Shown piece by piece: positions 11,234 to 30,747 of a DNA stretch of 64,000 nt. Both the position numbers and the translations under genes were made by a program. This stretch comes from Rhodospirillaceae bacterium. GTDB lineage: Bacteria > Pseudomonadota > Alphaproteobacteria > UBA6615. The notes under the pieces are model-generated. The model worked only from the letters and a program-made list of their open reading frames with translations. It was not told the DNA's origin and searched no databases. How positions within the stretch are numbered: the first letter of the stretch is position 1; each line of letters starts with the position of its first letter. The stretch lies in NCBI GenBank assembly GCA_002713365.1, contig PASR01000014.1:69309-133308 (forward strand), given 5' to 3'.

Positions 11234-11236
11234 TTA

Positions 11237-12340: not shown

Positions 12341-12346
12341 TTAATA

Positions 12347-12802
12347 TTAGGGATAAATTAAGCGAATTGTTTGTGCCACGACGGCAGGTTTTTCACTATT
12401 TTCAACTTCTAGGGTGCCTTCTAGCACAACGCGCACTCCATCTTGTTTTGACAATTCGGCACTGGAAATAGTTTGTCTTAATCTAACCCGTGAATCAACG
12501 GGAACCATAGCAGTAAATCTAAGTTTTTCTAAGCCGTAATTAAGTGTATAGCTATTTTTTTCAATAATAAAAAATTCATCAGATAAACCAGGAAATAGCG
12601 ATAATAGTAGAAAGCCATGTGCGATTGTTTTACCTCCAGGAACTTCAGAAGCTGCCCTTTCAGGGTTTACATGTATCCATTGATGATCACCTGTCGCATC
12701 AGCAAATTTATTTATCATTTCTTGGCTTATTTTTACCCAATTACTAACTCCTATCTCTTCACCGATATGGTCGAGTAAATCATGGGGGTGCACGAAAATC
12801 AT
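12347..12802 (-). CDS. MaoC/NodN-like dehydratase
   Basis: FADATGDHQWIHV, TIAHGFL, LNYGLEKLRF. Confidence 0.92.
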   Translation of the reverse strand: MIFVHPHDLLDHIGEEIGVSNWVKISQEMINKFADATGDHQWIHVNPERAASEVPGGKTIAHGFLLLSLFPGLSDEFFIIEKNSYTLNYGLEKLRFTAMVPVDSRVRLRQTISSAELSKQDGVRVVLEGTLEVENSEKPAVVAQTIRLIYP

Positions 12803-12916
12803 AGAAACTCCTTTTGTTATCTGGCATTTTAGTTGCTTTGCATTATAGCAAAGTAATACATTAGGTAGTAGAGCGCATTAATTCAGATGCTTTTTTTTAG
12901 AGGAGAAAATATAGCT

Positions 12917-15013: not shown

Positions 15014-15020
15014 ATAGATA

Positions 15021-16004
15021 ATGCATAAAGTTGTTCGTTGTCATGAATATGGTAGTCCAGATGTTTTGCGGGTTGATACGGTTCCAACCCGCAAGCCAGG
15101 TCCAGGAGAAATAAGGGTTCGTTTACACGCTTGTGCCGTTAACTTTCCAGACATATTATCATGTGCAGGCACATATCAAGATAAACCAAAATTCCCTTTT
15201 AGCCCCGGTCGTGAATCTGCTGGGCAAATAATTGATTGTGCGGATGATATAACTGAATTTATTCCGGGTGATAGAGTTATGCTTTGGTGCGCATCTGACC
15301 ATGATGGCTATGCAGAAGAGGTTACTTTGCCTGCAAAATGCGCGTTTCCGATGCCAAAATCAATGAACTATGTCGAAGCCGCAGGGTTTATGTTAGTTTA
15401 TGGCACTGCATGGCATGGCCTAGTTGATTGTGGAAGGCTTAATTCAGGAGAAGTTGTGGCTGTCCACGGTGCTGCGGGAGGTGTTGGGATGGCAGCGGTA
15501 CAGGTGGCTAAAGCACTAGGTGCTAAGGTAATTGCTAGCGCAGGTAATGATGATAAACTTGATATAGTGGCTTCACAAGGCGCTGATTATCTAATTAATT
15601 ATAATAAAGATAACACACGTCAACGCATGAAAGAGATCACTAACGGTAGAGGTGTTGATATAGTTTTTGACACGGTTGGAGGAGATCTGATGAAATCTTC
15701 CATAAGCGCGATAGCATTTGAAGGCCGTATTCTTATAGTTGGTTTTACAAGTGGTGAGCATATAAAAGCGCCTACCAATATAATTTTAGTTAAATGGGCC
15801 TCGCTAATCGCTGTTCGTTTTGGACAGTTTTCTCGCAAATATGCTGATCGTACACAATCAAACCACAATAAGTTATTAAAACTATACGATGAGGGTAAGT
15901 TAAATCCATATGTCGGAAAGACATATCCTCTAAATAGAGCCGCGGATGCTCTTAAGGCATTACAGAGACGTGAAATAACTGGTAAAGTTATTTTAACTAC
16001 CTAA
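15021..16004 (+). CDS. NADPH:quinone oxidoreductase family (MDR) protein
   Basis: VNFPD...G.YQ.KP.FPFSPG.E, HGAAGGVG. Confidence 0.88.
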   Translation: MHKVVRCHEYGSPDVLRVDTVPTRKPGPGEIRVRLHACAVNFPDILSCAGTYQDKPKFPFSPGRESAGQIIDCADDITEFIPGDRVMLWCASDHDGYAEEVTLPAKCAFPMPKSMNYVEAAGFMLVYGTAWHGLVDCGRLNSGEVVAVHGAAGGVGMAAVQVAKALGAKVIASAGNDDKLDIVASQGADYLINYNKDNTRQRMKEITNGRGVDIVFDTVGGDLMKSSISAIAFEGRILIVGFTSGEHIKAPTNIILVKWASLIAVRFGQFSRKYADRTQSNHNKLLKLYDEGKLNPYVGKTYPLNRAADALKALQRREITGKVILTT

Positions 16005-16047
16005 TAATGCCTATATTATATGGCATTGCTTAAAAAAGGTCTTTATT

Positions 16048-16485
16048 TTAGAGAATTTTTTTATCAACTTTTTTTGGGGGAATGGAATAAGTGCCGGTTG
16101 CGTGGGCAATTGGTTCGGTATCTCCATCAGATAATAACGTAACTTGAAGCACTGCAAGCCGTTTTCCTAGCTTCATTATTTGGCACTCGGCTATTATATC
16201 CGATTTTTTTGGTAGACGCAGAAAATTAATATTTAAACTTGTTGTTACTGCCAGTTCTACCTGTCCAATAGCTCCCATTAAAGCGGCATACATGGAAAAA
16301 TCAGCAAGTCCCATCATGGCTGGCCCACTAATAGTGCCGCCCGGCCGTATAGAAATATCATTAAAAGGCATTCTTACGATTGCATGTCCATAACCAATAG
16401 TTTCTGCTCTAAAACCTAATTCATAGGCTTGAGGTAATTGGCTTTTAGAAAAATCATTAAAAATCTTAGGTGTAATTTTGTTCAT
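16048..16485 (-). CDS. PaaI family thioesterase
   Basis: RPGGTISGPAMMGLAD, VTTSLNINFLR, ATGTYSIPP. Confidence 0.9.
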   Translation of the reverse strand: MNKITPKIFNDFSKSQLPQAYELGFRAETIGYGHAIVRMPFNDISIRPGGTISGPAMMGLADFSMYAALMGAIGQVELAVTTSLNINFLRLPKKSDIIAECQIMKLGKRLAVLQVTLLSDGDTEPIAHATGTYSIPPKKVDKKIL

Positions 16486-16651
16486 GGCGGGTGTATTGAT
16501 TAGTTATAACTATATAATGTTTAAATTAATTAGAATACTAAGGCGACTGTCTGAATATAACTATTTACAACTTTTATTATTCATTTATCAATTAATGTAT
16601 TCGTAGAATCATAAAGAAGTAATAAATTAATTCTATGGGAGAAAAATAATT

Positions 16652-17653
16652 ATGATTAATGCAGCTGTAGTTGGACTAGGATGGTGGGGTAAGCATGTAT
16701 GCAGAGCACTAACTGCAAACAGTAAAAGTATGCGTGTTGTAAGGGGTATAGAACTTGATCCAGATCCAGTTGTTGGCTTGGCTAAGGAGATAGGTTTTCA
16801 ACTTTCAAGTGATTTTCAGGATGCACTTGATGATCCTGGAGTAGACGGAGTTATTTTAACCACTCCACATTCAACACATGAGGAACTTGTGCTGAGAGCT
16901 GCAGCTGCTGGCAAACAGGTGTTTTGTGAGAAACCTCTATCATTGACAGCAGCAAGTGCCAAAAAGATGGTTAAAGCATGTGCGGATGCTGGCTTAGTTT
17001 TGGGTTTAGGCCATGAAAGACGTTATGAACCGGCTATGGAAGAAGTTGCGCGAATTGTTAAGAACGGAGATTTAGGTACAATACTTCATGTAGAAGGACA
17101 CTATTCTCATGATAAATTTGCCCCTCTTGATTCAGATAATTGGAGAGGCTCTCTAATTCAGGCACCCGCTGCCGGATGGACAGGAATGGGTGTGCATCTA
17201 ACTGATATGTTGATTAGTATGTTAGGTCCAATTACTGAGATAAGGGCTATTTCTGCAAAACGCGTTCTTGATTTACCTAGCGGAGATGTTGTCAGTACGC
17301 AGTTTAGTTTTGCTGATAAAACTACTGGTTCTATAAACGTAGTATCAGCCACGCCTTTTTATGGACGATTTGCCGTATATGGTGAGTTGGGCTGGGTAGA
17401 TATACAAGAGATGGCTCACCCCGAAGACATTGGCCCAACACACATGACTATTTGCAATAAAGAGGGTAAACGTGAATTAAAGATTTTTGAACCAATTGAT
17501 ACAGTAACCCTTAATTTTGATGCTTGGGCAGATGCTGCAGCTGGTAATGGGACTTATCGATTTACAGATATGGAACGCATTTCTAATGTTGCCGTACTGG
17601 AGGCTCTAGCAAAATCAACTCAAACGGGCCAAGCAGAAATCGTCGACAATTAG
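16652..17653 (+). CDS. Gfo/Idh/MocA family oxidoreductase
   Basis: VGLGWWG, TPHSTH, GKQVFCEKP, GVHLTD. Confidence 0.9.
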   Translation: MINAAVVGLGWWGKHVCRALTANSKSMRVVRGIELDPDPVVGLAKEIGFQLSSDFQDALDDPGVDGVILTTPHSTHEELVLRAAAAGKQVFCEKPLSLTAASAKKMVKACADAGLVLGLGHERRYEPAMEEVARIVKNGDLGTILHVEGHYSHDKFAPLDSDNWRGSLIQAPAAGWTGMGVHLTDMLISMLGPITEIRAISAKRVLDLPSGDVVSTQFSFADKTTGSINVVSATPFYGRFAVYGELGWVDIQEMAHPEDIGPTHMTICNKEGKRELKIFEPIDTVTLNFDAWADAAAGNGTYRFTDMERISNVAVLEALAKSTQTGQAEIVDN

Positions 17654-17848
17654 AAATATCATGTTAAAGTACTTTAAAAATAATTAGGTTATAATTGAAT
17701 GAGATTGTATGACAGTATTGCATTAGCAAAGCGGATATGATCTGTCTTATTTTAACTTAAATATAAGATGGTATATTTTTATGTTTGGTTTTTAACCATA
17801 GATATTTTATGAAGAGATTATATAAATAAAGAACGCAGGAGGATTTCA

Positions 17849-19108
17849 ATGCGATACGGCAGTGCAAATTTTGGCATAACAGGTGTCGACTGGCAGCAAA
17901 GAGTTAATTTTGAACGTATGCGTACGTATCGTCTTGAGCGTGCGCGTGAAATGATGAAAAAAGCAGGTCTAGGCGCTATGCTTTGTTTGTATGACGAGAA
18001 TGTTCGTTATATTACAGGAACTTTAACACCTGGTTGGAATCGTCTGAAGCCTGGTCTTAGATACGCATTATTATGTGGAGATGGACAGCCAGTATTATTT
18101 GAGCAAGGCGATATTGGGGCACAAGTCGAAAGGCATGCTCCTTGGATACCACCAGAGAATATACGCTATTCCTATGCTTAGATTAAAGGAGCAGCTGGTC
18201 CAGCTTCAACACAACAGGTTACTAAATTCACTAATGCAGTTCTAGAAGAGATGAAACGTCATGGGGTTGCAGGAGAAAAATTAGGTGTAGATTTTATTGA
18301 TCTTAATATGATCAACCATTTTAACGAAATGGGCATTGAATGGGTTGATGGAATGTCACCAATGATGGATGCCAGAGCGGTAAAAAATGTTGATGAACAG
18401 GAATGTTCTAGGATTGTAGGCGCTATAGGTGATGCTGCTCATTGGGAGTGTATGAAGTTTCTAAAACCTGGTATCACTGAGAATCAGGTTACAGCTCATA
18501 TTATGAAATTTCTTTATGATATACCAGGTATGGAAGATGTTGAGGATGTAATTGTTTCCTCTGGACCTAATACTTGGCCAAACTGGCGAAATTTTGGTGA
18601 TAGAATAATACAACCAGGTGATATCGTCTTTATGGATTTGGCTGCCTTAACTTGGAATGGGTATAAGTCATGCTATTATAGAACTTATTGCGTTGGACGA
18701 GAGCCGACCCAAGAGATGAAAGATGTATATTCAGAGGCATTGGGCTGGTTATACGACTCTATTGAAGCGGTTAAAGCAGGTACAACCACTAGAGAAATAG
18801 CTTTGAAATGGCCATCTGCTAAAGAGATTTGGGGCTATGAAGAGGAAGATCAGGCAGCGGCTAATTTGTGGGGTCATGGGCTTGGTTTAGCTCAGTATGA
18901 TCCGCCAGTTATATCCCGTATTTGGTCTCTTGACCATCCTATTGAGATTAAACCAGGAATGGTTTTTGCTTTAGAAACTCAGCACGGTATCCCTTTTAAG
19001 TTTGGGGTCCGTATTGAGGAAATGCTGATCGTACATGAAGATGAAACTGAGATTATAACCAACTTCCCGGTTAATCAAATTACGGTTGTTGATCCTATGG
19101 CTCACTAG
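17849..19108 (+). pseudogene. M24 (Xaa-Pro peptidase / creatinase / DddP-like) hydrolase interrupted by an in-frame TAG at 18179-18181
   Basis: ORFs 17849..18181 and 18251..19108 share a frame; the gap reads IKGAAGPASTQQVTKFTNAVLEE with no further stop, so read-through gives 419 residues. Creatinase-like N-domain; pita-bread motifs MDLAA..GYKSCYYRT, GHGLG, ALET, GVRIEE. Confidence 0.8.
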
Positions 19109-19141
19109 TTGAAGGCGTACTGAATTTAATGAAAAATAAAA

Positions 19142-19169
19142 GCGGCCGGGTAATTTTTTGCCCGGCCGT
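19142..19169. terminator. GC-rich hairpin after the M24 gene (terminator or mRNA-stability element)
   Basis: CGGCCGGG...CCCGGCCG stem, with A-rich 5' flank and T-rich 3' flank. Confidence 0.6.
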
Positions 19170-19199
19170 CTTGTTATTTATTTAGGTGTATTTAAAACA

Positions 19200-20525
19200 A
19201 TGAATAAGTTTGTTGTAAACCTTTTGGATGCCGAAGCTGCTGACGCTCTGCGCTTCGGTCCCAAAACCGCAAATCAGGCCATACTTGCTCATGGTGGTTT
19301 GCCAACTCCGGGCGGTTTTTGTTTAGGAGCTGACGCTTATAATTATCAACTAGAATCACTGGGTCTCGCAGAGTCCGCTGAAAAAGCTATGAGCTTACCA
19401 TTTTTGGAATCTCGTGGATATGTTGCTGATGTTCGTATTGGTCTGTTTTCTGAACCAATTCAGCAACAAATTAGAGAAGAATTGGTAACTGCATATCAAG
19501 CGCTTGTGGATAGTTTTGGTGGTCGTATAGCTGTAAGGTCTTCATCACTTATGGAGGATACTGAAGGTTCTTCTTTTGCTGGCCAGTTTCAGACTTTTTT
19601 GGGTATTGATACTGAAGAAGATTTTCTTACTGCATTGCGAGCTTGCTGGGGAGCTCTTTGGTCTCCTCGCGCTATGCGTTATATGGATGATAAAAACATT
19701 AAGGCAACAGATACTGCTATGGCTGTACTGGTACAACCGCTCGTTGAGGCAGAAGTATCTGGTGGAGGGCTTAGCCAGACTTCAAATGGAGGTATGTCAA
19801 TAAGTGCTGCATGGGGTTTTGGTGAATCTCTCGCACAAGGAGAGGTAGTACCTGATAGATATGATCTATCATCAGAAGGTGAAATAGTTGAAGTAATAAA
19901 TGGACAGGAATTTGAGCATAGTATTCATTGCCATACACATCATGGAGGCATATCCGAAAATAATAAGAAAAATAAAGATAAGCCAAGCAATGAAGAAAAT
20001 TTATCACAAAGACAGTGCCTGACTATGAGCCAGGTAAATGAAATTGCTGCTTATATGAAAAAAGCTGAAAAAATAATTGGACAAGCAGTTGAGGTGGAAT
20101 GGGCTGCCGATGTTTCCGGTATTAAGATGTTACAGGCTCGACCACTGCATGTAAGGGAAGTGCACATTCCTGACGATATATGGAATGGTAAACCCTCTCT
20201 CCGTGGTCATCCCGGGGGCATTGGGTGGGCATCTGGCAGGGCTTGTATAGTTAGTTGTGAGTGTGAAATTTCTCGAATTAATCCTGGAGATGTTTTGATC
20301 ACGAAGGTGGCTGGGCCAGCTTTAGTAAGCGTATTGCCAAGAGTATCAGGGGTCATAGCAGAACTTGGTGGAAGTACCTCTCATCTAGCTTCATTGGGAC
20401 GAGAACGCGGCATACCTATGGTATTAGGGATCCCGGACGCTACTCAAAAGATTTCTGATGGAGTAATGGTCGCTGTTGATGGAGTTTCCGGCGAAGTTCG
20501 GTGGATGCCTTCTAATATTTCATAG
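19200..20525 (+). CDS. PEP-synthase/PPDK N-terminal ATP-grasp domain fused to a phospho-His swivel domain (no pyruvate-binding domain)
   Basis: FGPKTANQ, PTPGGF, AVRSSSLMED..SFAGQFQTFL, MAVLVQ, WGFGESL..GEVVPD, VEWA..MLQARP, GDVLIT, ELGGSTSHLASLGRERGIPMV, VDGVSGEV; ATG 19200 preferred over TTG 19158, which lies in the hairpin. Confidence 0.88.
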   Translation: MNKFVVNLLDAEAADALRFGPKTANQAILAHGGLPTPGGFCLGADAYNYQLESLGLAESAEKAMSLPFLESRGYVADVRIGLFSEPIQQQIREELVTAYQALVDSFGGRIAVRSSSLMEDTEGSSFAGQFQTFLGIDTEEDFLTALRACWGALWSPRAMRYMDDKNIKATDTAMAVLVQPLVEAEVSGGGLSQTSNGGMSISAAWGFGESLAQGEVVPDRYDLSSEGEIVEVINGQEFEHSIHCHTHHGGISENNKKNKDKPSNEENLSQRQCLTMSQVNEIAAYMKKAEKIIGQAVEVEWAADVSGIKMLQARPLHVREVHIPDDIWNGKPSLRGHPGGIGWASGRACIVSCECEISRINPGDVLITKVAGPALVSVLPRVSGVIAELGGSTSHLASLGRERGIPMVLGIPDATQKISDGVMVAVDGVSGEVRWMPSNIS

Positions 20526-20645
20526 ATAATCAACCTTGAAGAATTTAGCATTATTACCAAATTAGCCATTTTTTAATGGGTTAAAGATCTTATATTGAAT
20601 GATATTGGTAATTATTTCTAAATACTCTAATTGAGGAGAGTAATA

Positions 20646-21887
20646 GTGGCTGAAGTCAGTGTAGCTGTACTAGTAACTATGGACAGTAAAAGTGAAGAAG
20701 CACTTTTTGTCTGTAATGCATTAATTCAGCTCGGTGTGAAGCCATTGTTGATGGATTTATCTTTACGCCCCCATAATATAACTGGAGCTGATATTACCGG
20801 TGGTGATTTAGCTATAATTAGCGGAAACTCATGGGAAGAATTAGCCAAAATGGATAGAAACCAGGCCACTGAGGTTATGGTATCAGCAGGAATAAAAACC
20901 CTAAAAGAAAAATATTTACTAGGAAATATAGGAGGCGTAATAGGTTTAGGTGGTGCTAATGGCACTTCTATGGCTTGTTCTCTGATGCGTTCATTGCCTC
21001 CACTAGTGCCTAAAGTTATGGTAAGTGCAGTTGCTGCAACTGCTGCGGTTCAATGGTACATAGCTGAAAGTGATATAGTTATGTTTCCTTCCATTGGCGA
21101 TTTTACTTTGAATAGAATTACCCGAGGCGTACTCCAGAACGCTGCAACTGCTCTGGCTGCAATGACCTGCGCGATGGCTAACGACACTGAAAAAAAACAA
21201 GACGAACCTTTACTTATTGGGGTTTCCTCATTTGGGGGAACATCTGGTTGTGTAGATGTTGTTACTGATGGATTAGTTAGTGAGGGATATGAGGTAATAC
21301 ATTTTCATGCATCAGGCCCAGGTGGTAAAGCACTTGAATCGCTGGCACAAAAAGGCGAGTTAGCTGGGGTAGTGGATATTACTACCCATGAACTTACGGA
21401 TTATATAGTTGATGGTGTATACAGTGCTGGTGAGAATCGCTTAACTGCTGCTAGTGCTGCAGGTCTGCCACAGGTAATTGTTCCAGGTGCAATTGATCAT
21501 TCGAATTTTTGGGTAAATATGGTTCCTGAAAAATACTCTGATCGCGAGTTTTTCCAATATAATGCTCAAAATATTTTAATGCGCACTAATGCTTTTGAAT
21601 ATGAAAAACTTGGAAAATTGATGGCCGAACGTTTAAATCAAGCGGAAGAAAATTTTGTGGTCGTTATTCCATTGCGAGGTTTTAGTGAGCATACAAAAAG
21701 AAACACCCATGATCTTGGGGGGAATATTTTAGGTTCATGGGATAGACCCGGTGATGACAGGGTCTTTTACGAAACCCTAAAGAAAAACCTTATAAGGGGT
21801 GAAGTAGCTGAGTTGGACCTTCATATAAATGATCCTAAATTTGGCAGTGCGTGCCTCAAGTATTTTACACAATTGATTCAAAAGTAG
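20646..21887 (+). CDS. Tm-1-like ATP-binding domain protein (UPF0261)
   Basis: TMDSKSEE, IGLGGANGT, LPPLVPKVMVS, EVIHFHASGPGG, DITTHEL, IVPGAID, PLRGFS, HINDP; GTG 20646 after GAGGAG (ORF track gives 20631). Confidence 0.88.
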   Translation: MAEVSVAVLVTMDSKSEEALFVCNALIQLGVKPLLMDLSLRPHNITGADITGGDLAIISGNSWEELAKMDRNQATEVMVSAGIKTLKEKYLLGNIGGVIGLGGANGTSMACSLMRSLPPLVPKVMVSAVAATAAVQWYIAESDIVMFPSIGDFTLNRITRGVLQNAATALAAMTCAMANDTEKKQDEPLLIGVSSFGGTSGCVDVVTDGLVSEGYEVIHFHASGPGGKALESLAQKGELAGVVDITTHELTDYIVDGVYSAGENRLTAASAAGLPQVIVPGAIDHSNFWVNMVPEKYSDREFFQYNAQNILMRTNAFEYEKLGKLMAERLNQAEENFVVVIPLRGFSEHTKRNTHDLGGNILGSWDRPGDDRVFYETLKKNLIRGEVAELDLHINDPKFGSACLKYFTQLIQK

Positions 21888-21920
21888 ATTAAGAAAGTAT
21901 AGGAATAGGAGAGGTTAACA

Positions 21921-23627
21921 GTGGCAATTGATATCTCAGTAGAAAATTATGAAACTGATGTACTTGTTATTGGAGGAGGTGCAGCGGGAGGTATGGCGTG
22001 CTTCGAATGCGCGGAAGCTGGCGTCAGAGTTACTTTAGTTGGTAAAAGTAGACCTCCGAGCGGCACTACATCAGTTGCAAGAGGCGGGTTTGCTGCTGCT
22101 ATGGGAAAAGATGATAGCCCTGCTCAACACTTAGCTGATCTTCTCGAGGGTGATGGTGGTGAGCTGATTGACCCCGAGCTAGCGGGAATCTGGTGTGAAG
22201 ATATAGTCGAAATAGTTAATGATTTACGAGAATGGGGGGCTGACTTTGTAACTAATGAGGATGGAGATTTAGATTTAAAAATGTTTCCTAATCACAGCAA
22301 ACCTCGGGCTGTTCATCATTATGATACAACTGGTAATATGGTTACCAAAACTCTAGCAAAGAAAATACGACCCGACCAACGTATAGAACAACACTCTAAT
22401 ACTTCTATTGTTGATTTAATTGTTGAAGAAAACCGCATTATCGGTGCTTGGGGTGTAAACTATAATAAGGGTACCTTAGTTGCCTATTCCGCTAAAGAAA
22501 TTATTTTGGCTACTGGAGGTGGAAGCGGTCTTTTTTATGTAAATGATAACCCTCCACAAGTCACGGGTGATGGTTATGTAATGGGTTATCGTGCTGGCGT
22601 AGCGTTATTAGGAAGTGAGATGATAGACTTTCAGGCTATGTGTTGTTCACCCGAGGAGTTATTTGGGTTTGCCCCTCATCCGACAGGTTTTATTAATGCA
22701 GGTGCCGTTTTTCGTAATAGGGACGGAGAGTTGTTTCTAAAACGTTATTTTCCGGACACAGCTGAAAAGAGCACAAGAAGCGAAGTTATTCTAGCTATGG
22801 CCAAAGAGATACACGCAGGACGAGCAGGACTAACTGGCGGTATTTTTATGGATGCAACAGAAGTTCCAATGGAAATTATTCAAAAGCAGATCCCTCATGT
22901 TTATAAAACGTGTCTTCATAGGGGTATTGATATTAGTAAAACGCCTTTGGAGGTTGCTCCAGGAAGCCACACGTGGCTCGGGGGACTTGAAATTGACATA
23001 GATGGTAGGACACCAATGAGTGGTTTATGGGCAGCTGGAGAAACTGGAGGAGGAATTCACGGTGGTAATAGGATAGGCGGATCGGCATTATCGTCTGCCC
23101 TTGTCTTTGGTCGTAGAGCTGGTAAAGCTGCCGCCCGTTTGGCTAAGAGTGAAAGTTCTATACCAGTCAGAGTTGAGGTTCCAGATGAGGCGAATGATAT
23201 GCTAGTCGATTTAATAAGCCGTGATGAGGGGCCACTGCAGGCGGATGTTAGATTGCGTTGTCGAATGCTAGCTCATGATCAACTTGGATCAATTAGAAGC
23301 TCTGATGGTTGTAAATCTGCATTAGCCGAGTATTCGAAGATAGAAACTGAAGAAATCCCTCGTATGCGACTTTCGGAAGAAGCAAAGAAATCACAGAAAC
23401 TAAGGGGTCAAGAACTAGAAAGTGCTTTGTCTGTATCAAATTTAGCGCTTTTGGGACGACTATTGGCCACTGCATCACTAGCACGTGAAGAAAGTCGTGG
23501 AGCACATTACCGAACTGATTTCCCGGATAAAGATGACAAAAACTGGGGTGCAGTAACACGACTAGAGAAGGGGCTAAACGGCGAAATTATTATTAAAAAG
23601 GATTCACTAAAACAAGATATTTCATAA
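21921..23627 (+). CDS. SdhA/FrdA/NadB-family FAD-binding oxidoreductase, standalone
   Basis: DVLVIGGGAAG, ILATGG, TGDG, PGSHTWLGG, GLWAAGE, HGGNRIGG, REESRGAHYRTDFP. Confidence 0.88.
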   Translation: MAIDISVENYETDVLVIGGGAAGGMACFECAEAGVRVTLVGKSRPPSGTTSVARGGFAAAMGKDDSPAQHLADLLEGDGGELIDPELAGIWCEDIVEIVNDLREWGADFVTNEDGDLDLKMFPNHSKPRAVHHYDTTGNMVTKTLAKKIRPDQRIEQHSNTSIVDLIVEENRIIGAWGVNYNKGTLVAYSAKEIILATGGGSGLFYVNDNPPQVTGDGYVMGYRAGVALLGSEMIDFQAMCCSPEELFGFAPHPTGFINAGAVFRNRDGELFLKRYFPDTAEKSTRSEVILAMAKEIHAGRAGLTGGIFMDATEVPMEIIQKQIPHVYKTCLHRGIDISKTPLEVAPGSHTWLGGLEIDIDGRTPMSGLWAAGETGGGIHGGNRIGGSALSSALVFGRRAGKAAARLAKSESSIPVRVEVPDEANDMLVDLISRDEGPLQADVRLRCRMLAHDQLGSIRSSDGCKSALAEYSKIETEEIPRMRLSEEAKKSQKLRGQELESALSVSNLALLGRLLATASLAREESRGAHYRTDFPDKDDKNWGAVTRLEKGLNGEIIIKKDSLKQDIS

Positions 23628-23642
23628 AAGTTACGGTAACTT

Positions 23643-24659
23643 TTAGTAATGTTCCATAATTATTTTCATTCTTTGTGGTGCGTCAGTACCAACCATTTCC
23701 ATTGCTTTTCCAAGTTGATCAAGAGGAAGTATATCACTGATTAGTGGGTTTAAGTTTATTTTTCCACTTTCAAACATTTCCAAACATGCAGAAAAATCTT
23801 TGTCTGTTGCGGCCCTTGCATTGATAAACTGTATTTCCTTAAAATACATATCATAAAATGGTAGAGCACCTTCCGTATTGGTATGGATACCATAACCAAG
23901 GACACGACCTCCTAGTCTAACTAGATCCATTGCTTGGGCCAAAACGGATAGTTTACCGGCTGATTCAATAACCAAGTCAGCTCCGATGCCATTAGTAGCT
24001 TCTAGCACAAGTTGTTTTGTTAGATCGTTGGGCTCTAGTGTAATATCTGCGCCTATACTTTCAGCCACCTCGCGTTTCCACTTGCTACGAGTAATACCGA
24101 TTATAGTTTTTGCACCTCTTGCTTTTGCGAGTTGTACATGCAGCAGTCCACCGACACCCAGACCTAGAACTACTACTGTGTCATTAATTGAAACGCTAGC
24201 CATTTGCTGTGCATGCATTACGGTGGTTAAAACTTGTATTAATGGTGCTTCCTGGTTAGTAATTTTGTCGGGCATAGCAAAAACGTTTTTTGGGGGAACG
24301 GCTACATACTCTGCAAATCCGCCGTCCTGGTCGCGACCTATTAATCCTCCATTAGGGCAAAGTTGAGTTTGACCTATGTTACAATGAAAACATTCTCCAC
24401 AATATAGAACCGGATCTACAATGACTCTTGATCCAACCTTAGGACTCGCCGAATCTCCTGCTTGAGTAACTTCACCTATCATCTCATGACCCATAATGAG
24501 AGGGTAATTGGCTGGGATTCCCCCACTAAATATCTTTAAGTCAGTTCCACAAACTCCCGAATGAGTAATACGAACAACACTATTGCCATCATCTGCATTA
24601 GGGTTTTCAACTTCCTCCAGTCCTACTTTGTTTGGAGCTCCCAGTAGCATTGCCTTCAT
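23643..24659 (-). CDS. Zn-dependent alcohol dehydrogenase (sorbitol/threonine dehydrogenase-like MDR)
   Basis: GVCGTD, GHE, CGECFHC...C, GLGVGG. Confidence 0.9.
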   Translation of the reverse strand: MKAMLLGAPNKVGLEEVENPNADDGNSVVRITHSGVCGTDLKIFSGGIPANYPLIMGHEMIGEVTQAGDSASPKVGSRVIVDPVLYCGECFHCNIGQTQLCPNGGLIGRDQDGGFAEYVAVPPKNVFAMPDKITNQEAPLIQVLTTVMHAQQMASVSINDTVVVLGLGVGGLLHVQLAKARGAKTIIGITRSKWKREVAESIGADITLEPNDLTKQLVLEATNGIGADLVIESAGKLSVLAQAMDLVRLGGRVLGYGIHTNTEGALPFYDMYFKEIQFINARAATDKDFSACLEMFESGKINLNPLISDILPLDQLGKAMEMVGTDAPQRMKIIMEHY

Positions 24660-24710
24660 TCTTTATAACTCCTCTACTATAAAATTATATTCATATGCTG
24701 CAGTCGCTAT

Positions 24711-25685
24711 TTATTTTGTGAAAACATCCGGGTTCACGGGAAACTTAGGCTTCGCTCCGTTTAGTACAGCAGCAACATCTTTTGCAACAGTTGTTTGCAG
24801 ATCGAGTAAAGCATCTTCAGAATAAAAGCCTGTATGCGGAGTGAGTATTAGATCTTCTCTACCAAATAAAGGGCTGTCTGATGACGGAGGTTCTTGAGGT
24901 AAAACGTCAAGCGCAGCCCCTCCTATTTCTCCTTTTTCTAGAGCTTCAACTAATGCATCAATATCCACTAGTGGTCCTCTGGAGGTATTTATTAGCAAGG
25001 CATCATTTTTCATTTTTCTAAATGCTTCAGTACTAAACATGTTTTGTGTCTCTGGAGTTAACGGTGCGTGCACTGATATATAGTCGGACTTTTCGTATAG
25101 TTCTTCTAATTCTACTTTTTGGGTGTTCATTTTAGTAAAAAGATCATCTGGTGCATATGGATCTGCAGCAATAGTTTTAATGCCGAATGCTTGCGCTTTT
25201 CCCACTACTGCTTGCGCAATATTCCCTAACCCTACTAAACCAAGGGTGCGGCCTTTCAGACGTCTAATAGGTACAACAGCAGGCATTTCCCAGCGTCCAT
25301 TATGAACCATTTGGTTAGAGAATGGAATTTTACGTGCCAGAGCTAGTAAAGTTGTCATAGCATGGTCAGATACCTCGTCGAGGCAATATAGGGGAGCGTA
25401 TGTAACTACAATACCAGCCTCAGTAGCGGCTTCAATATCTATATTATCAGTTCCCACACCAAAACGCCATATTACTTTACATTTTTCCAATCCATTAATG
25501 ACTTCAGCTGTAATTTGGGCATACGTTACAAATAATGCTTCTGCATCTCGGGCAACTGATAAAATTGCTTCTTTACTTGGGTTTTCAGACCTTTCTAGAC
25601 TGACATTTAAATCTGCAAGAACTTTTTCTGCAGGTTCCCAGTTAGGAAACACTGTATCGGCGATGGCAACTAATATTTTGCTCAT
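24711..25685 (-). CDS. D-2-hydroxyacid dehydrogenase, CtBP-like
   Basis: GVGTDNID, YCLDEVSDH, GLGNIA, INTSRG, ALDV..EP, LTPH.GFYSE. Confidence 0.9.
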   Translation of the reverse strand: MSKILVAIADTVFPNWEPAEKVLADLNVSLERSENPSKEAILSVARDAEALFVTYAQITAEVINGLEKCKVIWRFGVGTDNIDIEAATEAGIVVTYAPLYCLDEVSDHAMTTLLALARKIPFSNQMVHNGRWEMPAVVPIRRLKGRTLGLVGLGNIAQAVVGKAQAFGIKTIAADPYAPDDLFTKMNTQKVELEELYEKSDYISVHAPLTPETQNMFSTEAFRKMKNDALLINTSRGPLVDIDALVEALEKGEIGGAALDVLPQEPPSSDSPLFGREDLILTPHTGFYSEDALLDLQTTVAKDVAAVLNGAKPKFPVNPDVFTK

Positions 25686-25804
25686 TTTTTCCTCTTAGTA
25701 TTTGTTCATTAAGACAGATTCTAGGTCTAATCTTTTGTATTAAAAAATGATATTTACATTGGGTATAAAATAAAAATTCTGAAAGAGCTATCATATTTAT
25801 ATAT

Positions 25805-26824
25805 TTATAATATTGAATAAAACCAGACACCATCTTTACTTTTTTCTCGCTTAATACGTCTAAGAGAAATTAAATGGTTAAGATGAGCCAAGGTTTCAGT
25901 GACAGCTAGGCTGGATTGGAGGCTGTCAAGATCGCTCGAGAAAGATTTACTAGCTATAGTGTTTGCTGTGGATGATTCGGTACACAGAAGCGCCATCTGT
26001 TCTAGTCTTTCATCATGATGTTCTAACAGCTTATCAAGACGATAGTGAATTCCATAAAATGGTTCATTATGCGAAGGAAGAACGAGAGTAGTATCGGGTA
26101 ATTTACTACGAAATGAAGAAGTTGTTTTTAAAAAATCACCTAAGGGGTTTTCCCCACCGTCACCAGGGAAAAGTGATACATTAGGTGATATCTTAGGTAA
26201 AACTTGATCGCCAGCTATCAGAACATTTAGATCAGAACAGTAGATTGAGACGTGCTCAGGAGCATGTCCACGTCCAATCATTACTTCCCAGGATTTTCCT
26301 CCTATATTAAAGAGCATTCCGTCATACATAGTTGTATGCAAATCTGGTGTTGGGCTCATGCGGCTATTATATCCAGACCACAGTGAGTGGGTTGTATTTA
26401 TCATTTCTTCTGAACAGCCGGCACTACGAAAAAAGGAAAATACATTTTCTGTCCATGCTTCATCAGGTCCCCCAGTTAATAAACGTGTTCGTTCCCACTC
26501 AGTTTTGCTCATCCATAATTGTGAATCAAATTTTTCTGTTAACCATCCCGCTAGACCAGCATGATCTGAATGAAAGTGAGTTACAATTATTCTCTTTATG
26601 AGCCTTTTTTGGAGATGACTATTACTAATCAGAGTCCAAGCTTTACGCGCTTCTTCCATTGCCATTCCTGTGTCAATCAAAGTCCAGCTATCGCCGTCTT
26701 CTAGCAACCAAAGATTTACATGGTTAAGCCGGAATGGCAGCGGCATACGTATCCAATATATGCCTGGTGCTACTAGCTGAACTTCGCCATTTTTAGGAAT
26801 TTTAGTAAAAGGATATTCAATCAT
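25805..26824 (-). CDS. MBL-fold metallo-hydrolase
   Basis: PLPFRLNHVN, THFHSDHAG, GHAPEH, GDQVLP.ISPN, LPSH. Confidence 0.92.
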   Translation of the reverse strand: MIEYPFTKIPKNGEVQLVAPGIYWIRMPLPFRLNHVNLWLLEDGDSWTLIDTGMAMEEARKAWTLISNSHLQKRLIKRIIVTHFHSDHAGLAGWLTEKFDSQLWMSKTEWERTRLLTGGPDEAWTENVFSFFRSAGCSEEMINTTHSLWSGYNSRMSPTPDLHTTMYDGMLFNIGGKSWEVMIGRGHAPEHVSIYCSDLNVLIAGDQVLPKISPNVSLFPGDGGENPLGDFLKTTSSFRSKLPDTTLVLPSHNEPFYGIHYRLDKLLEHHDERLEQMALLCTESSTANTIASKSFSSDLDSLQSSLAVTETLAHLNHLISLRRIKREKSKDGVWFYSIL

Positions 26825-26897
26825 ATTAAAAAAATCATGATTTAAAGCTTCAGGAACAATAGAGATACTCTATACATCTCTACTATAGTTGGCGGAG

Positions 26898-27743
26898 TTA
26901 TGCTTTATACTTTACTACTTTGCTTTTGTGTTCTCCTAACCCTTCTACACCGCACGTTACTATATCACCTGCTTTAAGAAATACCTGAGGTTTCATTCCT
27001 AATCCAACACCTGAAGGTGTTCCAGTATAAATTACATCGCCAGGATATAGGGTAATCATTTTGCTCATATTGCTTATGATTGCCGCACAATTAAATATCA
27101 TGTCTGAGGTGTTACTGTCTTGGTAGCGTTTACCGTTAACTTCAAGCCAAAGCCTTAGTTTTTGAGGGTTTTTAACTTCATCTGAGGTAACTAACCATGG
27201 TCCTAATGGAGCAAAAGTATCTGGGCTTTTTCCCATTATCCATTGTAAGCCGCCATGTTCTAGCAAGAAAGCTCTTTCGGATACTTCATTTCCTGTTGCA
27301 TATCCAGCAACATATTTAAGAGCATCTCGTTTACTTACATGACGAGTTTTACGCCCAATTACCAAGCACAGTTCGATTTCCCAGTCTGTTTTTTTTGATC
27401 CCTTAGGTAAAACAATTGCATCTTTATGACCTGTTAACGGACAAGTTTTGGTAAATACAAATGGTTCTGATGGAACTTTTACTCCTGCTTCTTTGGCATG
27501 TAGGGCATAATTAAGTGCAATGGCAAACGTTCTTCGAGGTACAACAGGTGGTCCCAAGCGTGGTCTGCCTCTAACAAGTGGTAATTGATTTTCTTTTAGT
27601 TTAGAGATTTTATTTAAACTAGCTGGGGCTAGAGCATCTCCATCAAAATCATTAATTAACTTAGATAGATCTCGAATTTTTCCATTACTATCTAGTAAAC
27701 CCGGCTTTTCCTTGCCGGCAGGCCCGTAACGTAAAAGTTTCAT
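26898..27743 (-). CDS. Fumarylacetoacetate hydrolase family protein
   Basis: MKLLRYG..GKEKPG, LNY..HA.E, DWEIEL, GKSPDTFAPLGPW, TGTPSGVG. Confidence 0.92.
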   Translation of the reverse strand: MKLLRYGPAGKEKPGLLDSNGKIRDLSKLINDFDGDALAPASLNKISKLKENQLPLVRGRPRLGPPVVPRRTFAIALNYALHAKEAGVKVPSEPFVFTKTCPLTGHKDAIVLPKGSKKTDWEIELCLVIGRKTRHVSKRDALKYVAGYATGNEVSERAFLLEHGGLQWIMGKSPDTFAPLGPWLVTSDEVKNPQKLRLWLEVNGKRYQDSNTSDMIFNCAAIISNMSKMITLYPGDVIYTGTPSGVGLGMKPQVFLKAGDIVTCGVEGLGEHKSKVVKYKA

Positions 27744-27873
27744 ATTTATTATCCCTTGAGATTTTTGAGGTAAACATCATTTTTTATCTTAAATAATTAT
27801 CATCATAGAATTAAAAAAGGAACCATAACTATAGTTTAAATATGTCCCATAAATATAATTTATATACATAATG

Positions 27874-28215
27874 TCAGGAGATTTTATTCAGACGAAGCTT
27901 TAAACTTTCTCCAAGCCATATAGCAAAACTTGTATGATCAGCAATATCATCTCCTGTTAAAGGATGAACTAAGATTGATAAACCATCTCGATTAAATGAC
28001 ATCCAAGTAACTAAACTAGAAAATATGTCAGCTTTAAATTCAACTTGGTACATCCCTTTTGGATGCGGCCCTACTGGATTTTCATGCCATCGACCTAGAT
28101 TTACATTAAATCGGGTTTTCATGCGTCTTCTAAGTCGATCAGCTACTTTTTTATTATCAGAATCATAATAAACGTGAGCATGATAACCAGCAATTGACTC
28201 AATAGTTTTGGACAT
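27874..28215 (-). CDS. DOPA 4,5-dioxygenase family protein
   Basis: YHAHVYY, PVGPHP, LSILVHPLTGD...DH....WLG. Confidence 0.9.
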   Translation of the reverse strand: MSKTIESIAGYHAHVYYDSDNKKVADRLRRRMKTRFNVNLGRWHENPVGPHPKGMYQVEFKADIFSSLVTWMSFNRDGLSILVHPLTGDDIADHTSFAIWLGESLKLRLNKIS

Positions 28216-28468
28216 ATTATAAAAATAACCAACAAAAGCTTTGCGTCAACCGTAAGTGCATAAAGAAATGTATTCACTTTATGTTGACGGGGTGACTGTT
28301 GGATTGTTTAAATTAATTATCCATTGAATATAAACCTCATATCTATAGAAATTAATCATGATTTTTAACCGATACTTACTTAACAATGCGCTATGTAGGG
28401 TTTAAAGAGCTCTGGTTAATCTCATAAGACGAAATTTACTTTTTAAAATACCATAGAGGTCAGAACTT

Positions 28469-29767
28469 TTGGTTCCTAATGTTTTTGAGTCCCACATTAT
28501 AGATATAAATTCACAAGACCGTGAAGCAATATTAACTCATTTTCGCTGGGTGCGTGGCGAGACTGAACGATTGGTGGCTCCTTTATCACTAGAAGACCAA
28601 GTAGTACAATCAATGGCTGATGCAAGTCCGACTAAGTGGCATCTTGCCCACGTGACTTGGTTTTTTGAAACCTTGATACTTACCCCTTATTACAAAGGAT
28701 ATAGCACTCCTAACGAATGCTTTATTTATCTATATAATTCTTATTATGAAACTATAGGCGAACGACATCCAAGACCAGAGAGAGGTTTATTGACGCGACC
28801 ATCTGGCGATGAAGTTATTAGTTATCGTAAACATGTAGATTCTGCTGTTGAGAATTTTATAGCTAACGCTGATGAAAGAACTTGGGAAATAGTGGGTCCA
28901 TTGATATTACTGGGTCTGCATCATGAGCAGCAGCATCAGGAATTAATCCTTATGGATATACTTAACGCTTTTTCCCATAATCCAATTTTTCCGAGTTATC
29001 TAGATCATATTACTCTTTCAGAAAAAAAGGCACCCAGACTAGATTGGTTTGAATTTGACGGAGGAATATATGAAATTGGACATAAAGGTGAGGAGTTTTC
29101 CTTCGATAATGAAGGCCCTCCACATAAAGAATATCTGGAACCTTACCAAATTGCTTCAAGGTTGGTAACTAATTCTGAATGGAAAGCATTTATGTCTGAT
29201 GGGGGTTACGAACGAGCGGAATTATGGCTGTCAGATGGATGGTCCATTGTACAAAATGAAAATTGGAAAACTCCTTTGTACTGGAAACAGATTGATGGAG
29301 TTTGGATGGCCATGACATTGTCTGGGCTTCAGATGGTTAACGATGAATCCCCTGTCTGTCATGTCAGTTTTTACGAAGCAGATGCATATGCACGTTGGTC
29401 TGGAAAACGTTTACCAACTGAATCAGAGTTGGAAATAGCAGCTAGTGGAATGGAAATTAAGGGAAATTTTCAATCGAAAGGTTTATTGCAAGCAGAACCT
29501 GCTGATGGAGTGCTTTCTAGTTTTCCTGAGCAACTATTTGGAGATGTTTGGGAGTGGACTCAAAGTTCGTACAGCCCCTATCCGGGCTACAAACCAGTAT
29601 CTGGGGCAGCTGGTGAATATAATGGAAAGTTTATGTCTAGCCAAATGGTATTGAGGGGGGGATCTTGTGTAACTCCAGTCGGTCATGTCCGTTCGACTTA
29701 TCGAAATTTTTTCTACCCACATATGCGATGGCAGTTTTCAGGACTGCGTTTGGCGGATAATATATGA
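28469..29767 (+). CDS. egtB: Ergothioneine biosynthesis sulfoxide synthase EgtB
   Basis: DinB-like QSMADASPTKWHLAH...HHEQQHQE plus FGE-sulfatase domain (FDNEGP, RLPTE, VWEWT, RNFF..RWQFSG); adjacent to egtD. Confidence 0.95.
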   Translation: MVPNVFESHIIDINSQDREAILTHFRWVRGETERLVAPLSLEDQVVQSMADASPTKWHLAHVTWFFETLILTPYYKGYSTPNECFIYLYNSYYETIGERHPRPERGLLTRPSGDEVISYRKHVDSAVENFIANADERTWEIVGPLILLGLHHEQQHQELILMDILNAFSHNPIFPSYLDHITLSEKKAPRLDWFEFDGGIYEIGHKGEEFSFDNEGPPHKEYLEPYQIASRLVTNSEWKAFMSDGGYERAELWLSDGWSIVQNENWKTPLYWKQIDGVWMAMTLSGLQMVNDESPVCHVSFYEADAYARWSGKRLPTESELEIAASGMEIKGNFQSKGLLQAEPADGVLSSFPEQLFGDVWEWTQSSYSPYPGYKPVSGAAGEYNGKFMSSQMVLRGGSCVTPVGHVRSTYRNFFYPHMRWQFSGLRLADNI

Positions 29768-30747
29768 GTAATATTAAAGAATTAGATCTCGGACCCCTGC
29801 ATGATTATTATGAGTTTGAACATGCCGTATCAGATTTCAAAGCTTCAGTAATCGAAGGTCTATCTTCGCCACAGAAAAAATTATCAAGCAAATATTTTTA
29901 TGATGTACGAGGCTCACAACTTTTTGATAAAATCACTGAACTTCCGGAATACTATTTATCTAGGACTGAAACAGATTTATTAAGAATTTATGCTGATGAA
30001 TTTGCTGAATTAATTGGAGAAGGATCTAGCTTAATTGAGTTTGGGAGTGGTTCAAGTACAAAAGTTCGCATTCTCCTTAATGCGCTTCAATCCCCTACAG
30101 CTTATGTTCCTATTGATATATCTCGTGAATATTTAATTCAGTCAGCTAAAGAGCTGGCGGTATCTTATCCTGATTTACCAGTAGTTCCTATTTGTGCTGA
30201 TTATACCCGACCCATTAAACTGCCTTTTATACCTAATGAAAATAGCCGAGCGGGTTTTTTCCCAGGTTCGACTATTGGTAATTTTACGTATCAAGATGCT
30301 GTTAAGTTTTTGCGTACTGTTGCCAATGACCTGGGCTCTGGAAATGGCTTGCTAATTGGAGTAGACCTTAAAAAAGATGTTAAAATCCTTCGAGCTGCTT
30401 ATAATGACGCTGCCGGAGTTACGGCGGAGTTTAACCTTAATATCTTACGTCATATAAATAGAGCACTAGGGGTAGATATGGACCCGAATGAATTTACTCA
30501 CGATGCTCTGTGGAACCACGAAAAGGGACGTATTGAGATGCATCTGGTTAGTAAATGCAACCAAACTGTTTATTTTGAAAACCTAGAGTTTGAATTTATA
30601 GAAGGAGAATCTATACATACAGAAAATTCTCATAAATATACAATCGAAGGTTTTCAGTCATTAGCGGCTTTGGCTGGCTGGGAGGCCTGTAAATATTGGA
30701 AAGATTCTAACAATTTATACTCTATACACTATCTTCGTGTTGTATAA
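29764..30747 (+). CDS. egtD: L-histidine N-alpha-trimethyltransferase EgtD
   Basis: KYFYDVRGSQLF..ITELPEYY, EFGSGS..K, FPGSTIGN, AYNDAAGVTAEFN, IHTENSHKY; 4-bp overlap with egtB. Confidence 0.95.
   Translation: MSNIKELDLGPLHDYYEFEHAVSDFKASVIEGLSSPQKKLSSKYFYDVRGSQLFDKITELPEYYLSRTETDLLRIYADEFAELIGEGSSLIEFGSGSSTKVRILLNALQSPTAYVPIDISREYLIQSAKELAVSYPDLPVVPICADYTRPIKLPFIPNENSRAGFFPGSTIGNFTYQDAVKFLRTVANDLGSGNGLLIGVDLKKDVKILRAAYNDAAGVTAEFNLNILRHINRALGVDMDPNEFTHDALWNHEKGRIEMHLVSKCNQTVYFENLEFEFIEGESIHTENSHKYTIEGFQSLAALAGWEACKYWKDSNNLYSIHYLRVV

Follow-up and report, generated by a model that had tools for sequence, protein, structure and literature searches.

What do the genes at positions 17849 to 25685 of this stretch of DNA do, and do they act in one pathway? 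The stretch (64,000 nt of contig PASR01000014.1 from a Rhodospirillaceae bacterium, hereafter the window) belongs to contig C12 of a genome of 2.5 Mb that comprises 19 contigs and is rated 100% complete. The original prediction had seen four co-oriented genes here, for a protein of the M24 fold (the M24 protein), a phospho-histidine dikinase with an ATP-grasp domain (the dikinase), a UPF0261 protein and an SdhA/NadB-like flavoprotein, which converge on the genes of a Zn-dependent medium-chain dehydrogenase (Zn-MDR) and a D-isomer-specific 2-hydroxyacid dehydrogenase (2HADH). Gene calls made from the open reading frame (ORF) listing and from Pfam scans of the window agree with this gene set and its order, and with the 15-bp gap (23628-23642) that had been noted between the convergent flavoprotein and Zn-MDR genes. 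Here, we found that the M24 protein and the dikinase are encoded by a conserved gene pair, and we tentatively propose, at somewhat less than an even chance, that the two proteins form a two-protein phospho-histidine dikinase which passes the phosphoryl group in trans to a small acid at the M24 metal site.

Species-representative genomes were scanned with an alignment of dikinase homologues. At least 595 stretches matched, which may include more distant phosphoenolpyruvate (PEP)-synthase-type proteins, and the best 80 of them were examined; among these, the loci closest to the window are records of marine alphaproteobacterial metagenome-assembled genomes (MAGs). An M24 gene was present in 68 of the 70 dikinase-seeded loci whose sequence extends 1.4 kb or more beyond the dikinase match on the upstream side. 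Where a locus holds both genes, the M24 gene is co-directional with the dikinase gene and directly upstream of it in 69 of 72 cases, the matches lying a median of 77 nt apart; in the three exceptions the matches overlap by 15 nt (L042) or the Zn-MDR gene intervenes (L063 and L076). Across these 72 loci, the identity of the M24 protein is 77-98% (median 82%) and that of the dikinase 50-77% (median 55%). The record titles of the loci name Alpha-, Beta- and Gammaproteobacteria, SAR324 and two Flavobacteriales bins. The pair is rare. An evenly drawn sample of 400 further genomes of the phylum gave no M24 orthologue; six of these genomes held only paralogues of 36-37% identity. A search of a plasmid collection gave only ordinary ppsA at about 30% identity (10 records). 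A cultured and named host did not turn up for the pair, the 80 genome loci all being MAG records.

The dikinase gene (19200-20525, plus strand; longest frame from 19158) encodes a protein of 441 aa, and the ATG at 19200 that had been chosen as its start fits the consensus N-terminus of the family and a ribosome-binding site. The protein matches PF01326 (PPDK_N; 187 bits, residues 33-334) and PF00391 (PEP-utilizers; 66 bits) and has no third domain. It lacks the C-terminal PEP/pyruvate TIM barrel (PF02896), and the chain ends about 45 residues after the His of its ELGGSTSH motif, a His that does not vary within sets of 13 and 16 sequences (H409 when numbered in the 455-aa frame from 19158). GGxT(S/C)H is given as the catalytic-His motif of the swivel domain in PMC12167813. 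The best match in the PDB is PEP synthase 8A8E, over residues 121-480 of 817. Against the NCBIfam PEP synthase models NF005057 and TIGR01418 the dikinase scores 238 vs 598 and 228 vs 740 bits, below the cut-off in both cases, and there is a weak NCBIfam match to PtsI. Its ESM Atlas model reaches a TM (template modelling) score of 0.86 to a 764-aa PEP synthase family, over the query only, and the ESM Atlas matches of the dikinase comprise only clusters named 'pyruvate, water dikinase (fragment)'. The source annotations are generic ('pyruvate, water dikinase' or 'PEP/pyruvate-binding domain-containing protein'). A longer, fused orthologue was not found at E <= 1e-90, which counts as weak evidence. 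In addition, the PEP-synthase template leaves a set of Cys and His residues unexplained, namely H254, C258, H261, C287, C363, C367 and C369 (455-aa frame), which are invariant in 13 members, most of them also in the second set of 16, and which may form a metal or redox site.

The partner gene (17849-19108, plus strand) has 419 codons and encodes a DddP-like metalloprotein of the pita-bread fold, with Pfam matches to Creatinase_N (31 vs a gathering score of 22 bits) and Peptidase_M24 (PF00557; 123.6 vs 23 bits). Its best PDB matches are the 'Peptidase M24' chains 4S00 and 4RZY (85 bits), which we take to be the dimethylsulfoniopropionate (DMSP) lyase DddP; the best NCBIfam model is also DddP (NF043017), at 107 bits against a cut-off of 600 that is not reached. 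The metal ligands of DddP are presumably Asp295, Asp307, His371, Glu406 and Glu421, with Asp377 as the catalytic base. When the M24 protein is aligned to 4S00, D295, H371, E406 and E421 are kept, D307 is replaced by Cys and D377 by Gln, and both replacements are invariant in the family. The M24 protein thus has four of the five canonical ligands of the two-metal centre (Asp, Asp, His, Glu, Glu), with an invariant Cys for the second Asp; D263, C275, H343, E376 and E390 are invariant in 16 sequences. A paralogue of 36-39% identity with the motif GY[KR][ST]CYYRT, which also has Cys at the metal-ligand position, is found in two unrelated genomes, on contig C11 of the own genome (L177: 4878-9538, minus strand) and in genome G514 (L176: 4748-9433, minus strand). 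In both, it lies directly upstream of genes for a thiamine diphosphate (ThDP)-dependent E1alpha, an E1beta and a lipoyl-bearing E2-type protein, a run of the 2-oxoacid-dehydrogenase type; this is a further uncharacterised partnership of an M24 protein.

How could these two proteins work together? The characterised PEP-utilizer dikinases described in PMC12167813 all hand the phosphoryl group of the phospho-His to a substrate in a further domain or subunit, and split dikinases (HpeHI, PpsAB and CreHI) are among them. Since the dikinase has no acceptor domain and has one invariant partner, the simplest mechanism would be phosphotransfer in trans to a substrate held by the M24 protein. First, ATP would be bound by the ATP-grasp domain of the dikinase. 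Second, the swivel-domain His would be phosphorylated as in PEP synthase, with ATP + H2O + substrate -> AMP + Pi + phospho-substrate as the expected overall reaction. Third, the phosphoryl group would be received by a small carboxylate that sits at the metal site of the M24 protein (Asp, Cys, His, Glu, Glu) and is most likely a 2-oxo- or 2-hydroxy-acid. Fourth, the phosphate would either be retained on the product or serve as the leaving group for M24 chemistry. Phosphotransfer in trans, the M24 protein as the acceptor site and the class of the substrate are parts of the proposal that we infer with moderate to low confidence. A complex prediction from M24 and dikinase alignments gave a score of 0.01 against a mark of 0.32; it was run without controls and was not used either way.

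Several points weigh against the proposal. Contact or phosphate exchange between the M24 protein and the dikinase is what we infer by analogy with the characterised dikinases. The loci are drawn from related MAGs, so that the counts given above overstate the number of independent events. The Cys/His set of the dikinase could form a site that would make this protein self-sufficient. Because a ligand Asp has become Cys and the base of DddP has become Gln, the function of the M24 site may be another one altogether, or it may bind only one metal. PEP-utilizers_C proteins of the size of PpsA or of pyruvate, phosphate dikinase (PPDK) are present in the own genome and in 5/5 other carrier genomes examined for them (open frames of 757-932 aa), and plain pyruvate-to-PEP conversion is therefore not called for. 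The M24 reading frame of the window is split by an in-frame TAG (18179-18181, codon 111) into two ORFs of one frame, and the TAG is also in the whole-genome copy. Finally, no M24-dikinase fusion was found; a search for 'longer' M24 proteins gave two matches. These two apparent fusions, P0122 (2HADH-M24, 742 aa) and P0123 (M24-ZnMDR, 808 aa), look like neighbouring genes merged by a frame error and were not counted, because their linkers or tails are garbled, rich in Arg, Pro and Gly, and come from high-GC contigs. We also considered that the pair replaces a missing PEP synthase or PPDK and found no support for this, the own genome and the 5/5 other carrier genomes having the full-length proteins. 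Smaller PEP-utilizers_C proteins of about 596 aa correspond in size to Enzyme I.

The TAG could mean that the cluster is decaying in this genome, with the M24 gene a pseudogene and the juxtaposition of the genes without present function. Its presence in both the window and the whole-genome copy speaks for such decay. In contrast, the M24 protein of the window is, the stop aside, 98% identical to an intact homologue over 419 residues, and the remaining genes of the cluster are all intact. The position of codon 111 is Trp in 70/70 aligned M24 homologues. A G at position 18180, and with it a TGG codon, is read in a 31.6-kb contig of runs X1 and X2, two runs that seem to contain the same data and from which the assembly may derive. 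The position is also G in metagenome contig L097, which is identical to the window in the dikinase gene, the Gfo/Idh/MocA oxidoreductase (Gfo) gene and its part of the flavoprotein gene, and in a 1369-nt contig of a marine metatranscriptome library (run X15). The X15 contig spans only the M24 gene and its leader (17733-19101); such contigs cannot prove transcript ends. Because of the Trp in all 70 homologues and the TGG in near-identical contigs, we conclude that the TAG is a one-base difference confined to this assembly, whether as an error or as a rare allele, and that the M24 family is not in decay; we consider decay of the cluster highly improbable. Pyrrolysine insertion or read-through at the TAG was ruled out on the same two grounds and by the gene's own stop, which is also TAG.

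If the two genes are intact, they could still encode independent enzymes that act in sequence, with the dikinase phosphorylating a small molecule alone at its Cys/His site and the M24 protein acting as an ordinary metal-dependent hydrolase or lyase one step before or after, for example by taking a group off the phosphorylated product; no phosphoryl group would then be transferred at the M24 site. This reading would account for the Cys/His residues that the template leaves unexplained, and it agrees with the four canonical metal ligands of the M24 protein, the relatives of which are hydrolases or lyases; adjacency of the genes alone is also no proof of a complex. A further point in its favour lies between the two genes, where 91 nt separate the stop of M24 (19108) from the start codon of the dikinase (ATG, 19200). 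A terminator-like scan found a GC-rich hairpin of 12 pairs there (19142-19169, plus strand), the motif of which, GGCCGGG...CCCGGCC, is unique in the 2.5-Mb genome. A similar hairpin, CGGCCGGGCG..CGYCCGGCCG, recurs at the M24/dikinase junction in many alphaproteobacterial loci. Downstream of the M24 stop, 25 of 43 loci have a helix of 9 or more pairs, compared to 116 of 507 other co-directional junctions. The hairpin could act as an attenuator within the operon or stabilise the mRNA, and it may set different levels of the M24 and dikinase products; such uncoupling of expression levels would suit two separate enzymes. On the other side, the separate acceptor domain or subunit is common to all the characterised PEP-utilizer dikinases in PMC12167813, the dikinase stops directly after the swivel domain, and the conservation of the M24 protein is above what is expected of a peripheral hydrolase in variable clusters. 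We regard independent enzymes as unlikely, though as a less unlikely alternative than those that follow.

The same strict pairing, together with very high conservation along the whole length of the M24 protein, would also fit a dikinase that is a protein kinase of its neighbour, in a phospho-His relay of the Enzyme I to HPr type that switches M24 activity. The swivel domain is common to Enzyme I of the phosphotransferase system (PTS), the weak NCBIfam match to PtsI points the same way, and PTS relays end on Cys, an invariant residue of the M24 site. Such a relay is improbable in our view: the ATP-grasp domain belongs to the PEP-synthase type, in which the His is loaded from ATP for transfer to small molecules, a cost of ATP to AMP would be unusual for regulation, and phosphorylation of the M24 protein is without any evidence. 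Transfer in trans to a small acid at the M24 site thus stays our preferred reading of the pair.

Which acid this could be was considered from the genes around the pair. In the best 80 dikinase loci, the most frequent neighbour is 2HADH (51 loci), followed by Gfo (40) and Zn-MDR (29). A FAH gene (fumarylacetoacetate-hydrolase family) occurs in 18 loci, a gene like those of isopropylmalate synthase (IPMS) in 18, a short-chain dehydrogenase/reductase (SDR) in 16 and Ldh_2 in 14, and transporter genes are represented by TctC (18) and TctA (16) of the tripartite tricarboxylate transporter (TTT) and by DctM (16) of the tripartite ATP-independent periplasmic (TRAP) transporter. As counted from gene maps, 2HADH is co-directional with the dikinase gene and directly downstream of it in 20 loci. 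The Gfo homologue is often co-directional and directly upstream of the pair, and Zn-MDR occurs together with 2HADH in 23 of its 29 loci. In the Burkholderiales-type loci L063 and L076, M24, Zn-MDR, dikinase, two 2HADH, FAH and Gfo genes form one co-directional run. The IPMS-like gene, which resembles isopropylmalate and homocitrate synthases without their regulatory domain, is shared between 18 of the 80 M24-dikinase loci and 4 loci of the UPF0261 and flavoprotein genes, and representatives of the two contexts are 60% identical. Smaller numbers of loci have a CoxSML-type molybdenum (Mo) hydroxylase, an amidase, an HpcH/HpaI lyase, a 3-hydroxyisobutyrate-dehydrogenase-like gene or a LysR gene. 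A metallo-beta-lactamase-fold (MBL) hydrolase is a lineage-restricted neighbour in only 6/80 loci, and a DOPA-dioxygenase-family gene is present in 12/80, all from the two nearest lineages.

At least seven different neighbour arrangements were found around the M24-dikinase pair. Since the M24 protein is hyper-conserved while the surrounding genes vary, the pair would act on one fixed small substrate that is fed by different peripheral routes. The neighbouring families suggest a handling of hydroxy-, oxo- and carboxylic acids, with transporters that import carboxylates. These oxo- and hydroxy-acid neighbours, together with the M24 paralogue beside E1alpha-E1beta-E2 genes, suggest a 2-oxo- or 2-hydroxy-acid as the substrate. 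In the proposed scheme, 2HADH, Zn-MDR, Gfo, FAH and, elsewhere, the IPMS-like enzyme and the TTT and TRAP transporters would supply or remove oxo- and hydroxy-acids. Sugar acids, glycolate or glycerate, sulfolactate, N-heterocyclic acids and phosphonates were considered as substrates from the neighbours, and none was singled out.

Do the UPF0261 and flavoprotein genes belong to the same system? The UPF0261 gene (20646-21887, plus strand; longest frame from 20631) starts with the GTG at 20646 that had been chosen before, which fits the family consensus and is preceded by a GAGGAG site. It encodes a putative small-molecule kinase of the Tm-1/MarK type with both UPF0261 Pfam domains (PF06792, 141 bits; PF23189, 213 bits), and like the dikinase gene it is single-copy in its own 2.5-Mb genome. 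The protein aligns end to end with MarK (PDB 9MPY; 168 bits). It keeps the Lys of the ATP site (K20; K16 in MarK and K20 in Tm-1) and the positions of G195, H219 and H348 of MarK, and has Tyr for H304; the His of its FHASG stretch and the H348-equivalent His are aligned to MarK. The roles of these MarK residues, including the stacking of His304 on an aromatic ring, are those given in PMC12624787, where MarK is described as the first UPF0261 protein with a demonstrated activity, the ATP-to-ADP phosphorylation of aromatic monomers.

The flavoprotein gene (21921-23627, plus strand) has the domains FAD_binding_2 and Succ_DH_flav_C. The best NCBIfam model for its product is TfrA (363 vs 718 bits); against NadB (TIGR00551) it scores 279 vs 453 bits. 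Aligned to SdhA, it has Thr at what we take to be the position of the covalent-FAD His and FQAM for FHPT, which presumably contains the substrate His, and it keeps the Arg, His and Arg that we assume to be catalytic or substrate-binding. There is no adjacent gene for an iron-sulfur (Fe-S) subunit, the neighbours being UPF0261 and Zn-MDR. A metagenome scan with an alignment of flavoproteins gave 243 relatives, the best 80 of which were examined. The UPF0261 gene is directly upstream of the flavoprotein gene in 55 of the 57 loci that have at least 1.3 kb upstream, and flavoprotein orthologues occur in 3/400 other sampled genomes of the class. The two proteins would then make up a MarK-type ATP-to-ADP kinase and a soluble flavin oxidoreductase that binds FAD non-covalently. 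A PF09370 'PEP hydrolase-like' barrel adjoins the two genes in 6/80 flavoprotein-seeded loci (e.g. L107, L114 and L168). In L105, L107 and L145 a recurring arrangement was observed in which cupin, IPMS-like and SDR genes lie divergent from UPF0261 and flavoprotein. Many of the flavoprotein-seeded metagenome contigs have no shared neighbours.

The original prediction had joined M24, dikinase, UPF0261, flavoprotein and the two dehydrogenases in a single linear pathway that hydrolyses, phosphorylates and oxidises one compound. The gene order does recur: Gfo, M24, dikinase, UPF0261 and flavoprotein genes that converge on Zn-MDR, 2HADH, MBL and FAH genes were found again in L004, L005, L096, L101 and L102, which are related marine alphaproteobacterial MAGs and metagenome contigs, and the full order is thus common to these lineages and L001. 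The modules also adjoin in other orders, with UPF0261, flavoprotein, M24 and dikinase following one another in L009-L016 and an inverted arrangement in L033 and L058, and the 60% identity of the IPMS-like genes beside either module is likewise in favour of one pathway. In contrast, each module mostly occurs without the other. Only 28/80 dikinase-seeded loci hold UPF0261 and 25/80 the flavoprotein, and conversely, of the 19 flavoprotein-seeded loci with flanks of 4.5 kb or more upstream and 4.8 kb or more downstream, only 8 had an M24 or dikinase gene (15/80 with any flank). In addition, the dikinase and UPF0261 genes of the window are set apart by 120 nt of AT-rich sequence, and the many flavoprotein loci on contigs without shared neighbours also speak against it. 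A single linear pathway is therefore quite unlikely in our estimate.

Since each module mostly occurs without the other, M24-dikinase and UPF0261-flavoprotein are two independent two-gene modules, which are accompanied by variable dehydrogenase genes. In this region, conserved modules have been brought together in a lineage-specific way; they adjoin in some lineages and in several orders. Of what had been predicted, the recurrence of the genes together in related lineages was confirmed by the survey of neighbourhoods; the four co-oriented genes as one obligate unit were not, the modules being separable and no single fixed pathway. The claim that the set matches no characterised pathway is also supported, in that none of the six cluster proteins reached an NCBIfam equivalog cut-off, NCBIfam has no equivalog model for either gene pair, and no paper on the M24-dikinase pair or on the UPF0261-flavoprotein pair was found in searches of the full-text literature.

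The remaining genes of the locus lie on both sides of the modules. The Gfo gene (16652-17653, plus strand; GFO_IDH_MocA and C-terminal domains in Pfam) is upstream of the M24 gene, and its best NCBIfam model is IolG (108 bits vs a cut-off of 355). The minus-strand run starts with a gene of the DOPA 4,5-dioxygenase family (27874-28215; DOPA_dioxygen) and continues with FAH (26898-27743; FAA_hydrolase), the MBL hydrolase (25805-26824; Lactamase_B) and 2HADH (24711-25685; 2-Hacid_dh and 2-Hacid_dh_C above the gathering score), with Zn-MDR (23643-24659; ADH_N and ADH_zinc_N) as its last gene. For FAH the best NCBIfam model is 2,4-didehydro-3-deoxy-L-rhamnonate hydrolase (350 vs 500 bits), for 2HADH the best are phosphoglycerate dehydrogenase (PGDH; 263 vs 454 bits) and glyoxylate reductase (211 vs 455 bits), and the nearest models for Zn-MDR, below the cut-off, are a Zn oxidoreductase model and L-threonine 3-dehydrogenase. 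An Rfam search over 15500-29000 found no riboswitch, the sole match being a sub-threshold, chance-level greA leader (27 vs 60 bits, E 0.19). Promoter-like sites were fewer than in shuffled sequences (21 vs 36), and that scan was uninformative.

Two further blocks were observed beside the cluster. EgtB-like (DinB_2 and FGE-sulfatase) and EgtD-like (Methyltransf_33) genes, an ergothioneine-synthesis pair, overlap by 4 bp at 28469-30747 on the plus strand, divergent from the DOPA-dioxygenase/FAH run; in the two nearest lineages this pair also lies in synteny with the cluster. Upstream, a block of the fatty-acid-oxidation type at 9998-16485 comprises an acyl-CoA dehydrogenase, an APH-family kinase, a MaoC dehydratase, a medium-chain dehydrogenase of the quinone-oxidoreductase type, a 4HBT thioesterase and a FadB-like protein in which enoyl-CoA hydratase and 3-hydroxyacyl-CoA dehydrogenase are fused. 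Synteny of parts of this block was seen in L004, L096 and L101.

How do the two modules compare with known systems? The flavoprotein shares the FAD_binding_2 domain and a C-terminal helical domain with NadB, the soluble fumarate reductases and TfrA, and as in NadB, which we take to lack it as well, there is no His at the covalent-FAD position. It differs from these proteins, and from SdhA and FrdA, in having Gln for the His of FHPT, in the lack of an Fe-S subunit gene and in being preceded by UPF0261. The UPF0261 protein has the same two-domain architecture as MarK of Novosphingobium aromaticivorans and tomato Tm-1. The context is different: MarK lies among genes of acetovanillone carboxylation and UPF0261 is usually partnered by the PF09370 barrel, whereas here the partner is a flavoprotein. 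A domain for which catalysis was first reported only in 2025 (PMC12624787) is thereby seen in a second genomic context.

In the M24-dikinase module, the characterised protein that comes closest to M24 along the whole chain is DddP, with a creatinase-like N-terminal domain, a pita-bread domain and four ligand positions in common. DddP differs in that it needs no ATP, has no dikinase partner and has Asp307 and Asp377 where the M24 protein has Cys and Gln. Like the dikinase, PEP synthase (PpsA) and PPDK have an N-terminal ATP-grasp domain followed by a phospho-His swivel domain with GGxTSH, and ATP would be expected to be converted to AMP and Pi through phospho-His in all of them. In contrast to the dikinase, PEP synthase and PPDK have the TIM barrel (PF02896); the dikinase has the additional Cys/His set and an M24 partner. 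To our knowledge, a pita-bread metalloprotein is not a partner of any other dikinase. In a wider view, which we consider doubtful, a free-standing ATP-grasp/phospho-His charging protein and a pita-bread metalloprotein would be a new enzyme architecture, working as an ATP-driven, leaving-group-activating lyase or hydrolase or as an enol-phosphate synthase on a common small acid; UPF0261 and the flavoprotein would be a second undescribed kinase-oxidoreductase couple, and with the IPMS-like enzyme they would belong to an unrecognised oxo-acid route of marine and soil Proteobacteria. The locus may be an ATP-driven step in organic-acid metabolism.

The closest parallels to a dikinase in two pieces are HpeHI, PpsAB, CreHI and AcvAB, which, according to PMC12167813, are split over adjacent genes, move the swivel phospho-His between separate sites and start the catabolism of small molecules; rifampin phosphotransferase is a single-chain relative in which the phospho-His swivel also moves between separate sites. 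The HpeHI-type systems act on phenols, whereas the neighbours of the M24-dikinase pair point to aliphatic acids. The two HpeHI proteins associate only transiently. The place of the split is different as well. In the HpeHI type (PMC12167813), an ATP-grasp protein is separate from a protein with the swivel and a rifampin-binding-type domain; here the ATP-grasp and swivel domains are together in one protein and the M24 fold is the other. With no matching description found in the literature, the M24 protein and the truncated dikinase, by their domain composition, appear to be a new variant among phospho-histidine dikinases. If the proposal is true, this would be the first ATP-linked role for the M24 fold, and a third build of phospho-histidine dikinase besides the single chain and the split into ATP-grasp and swivel-substrate proteins.

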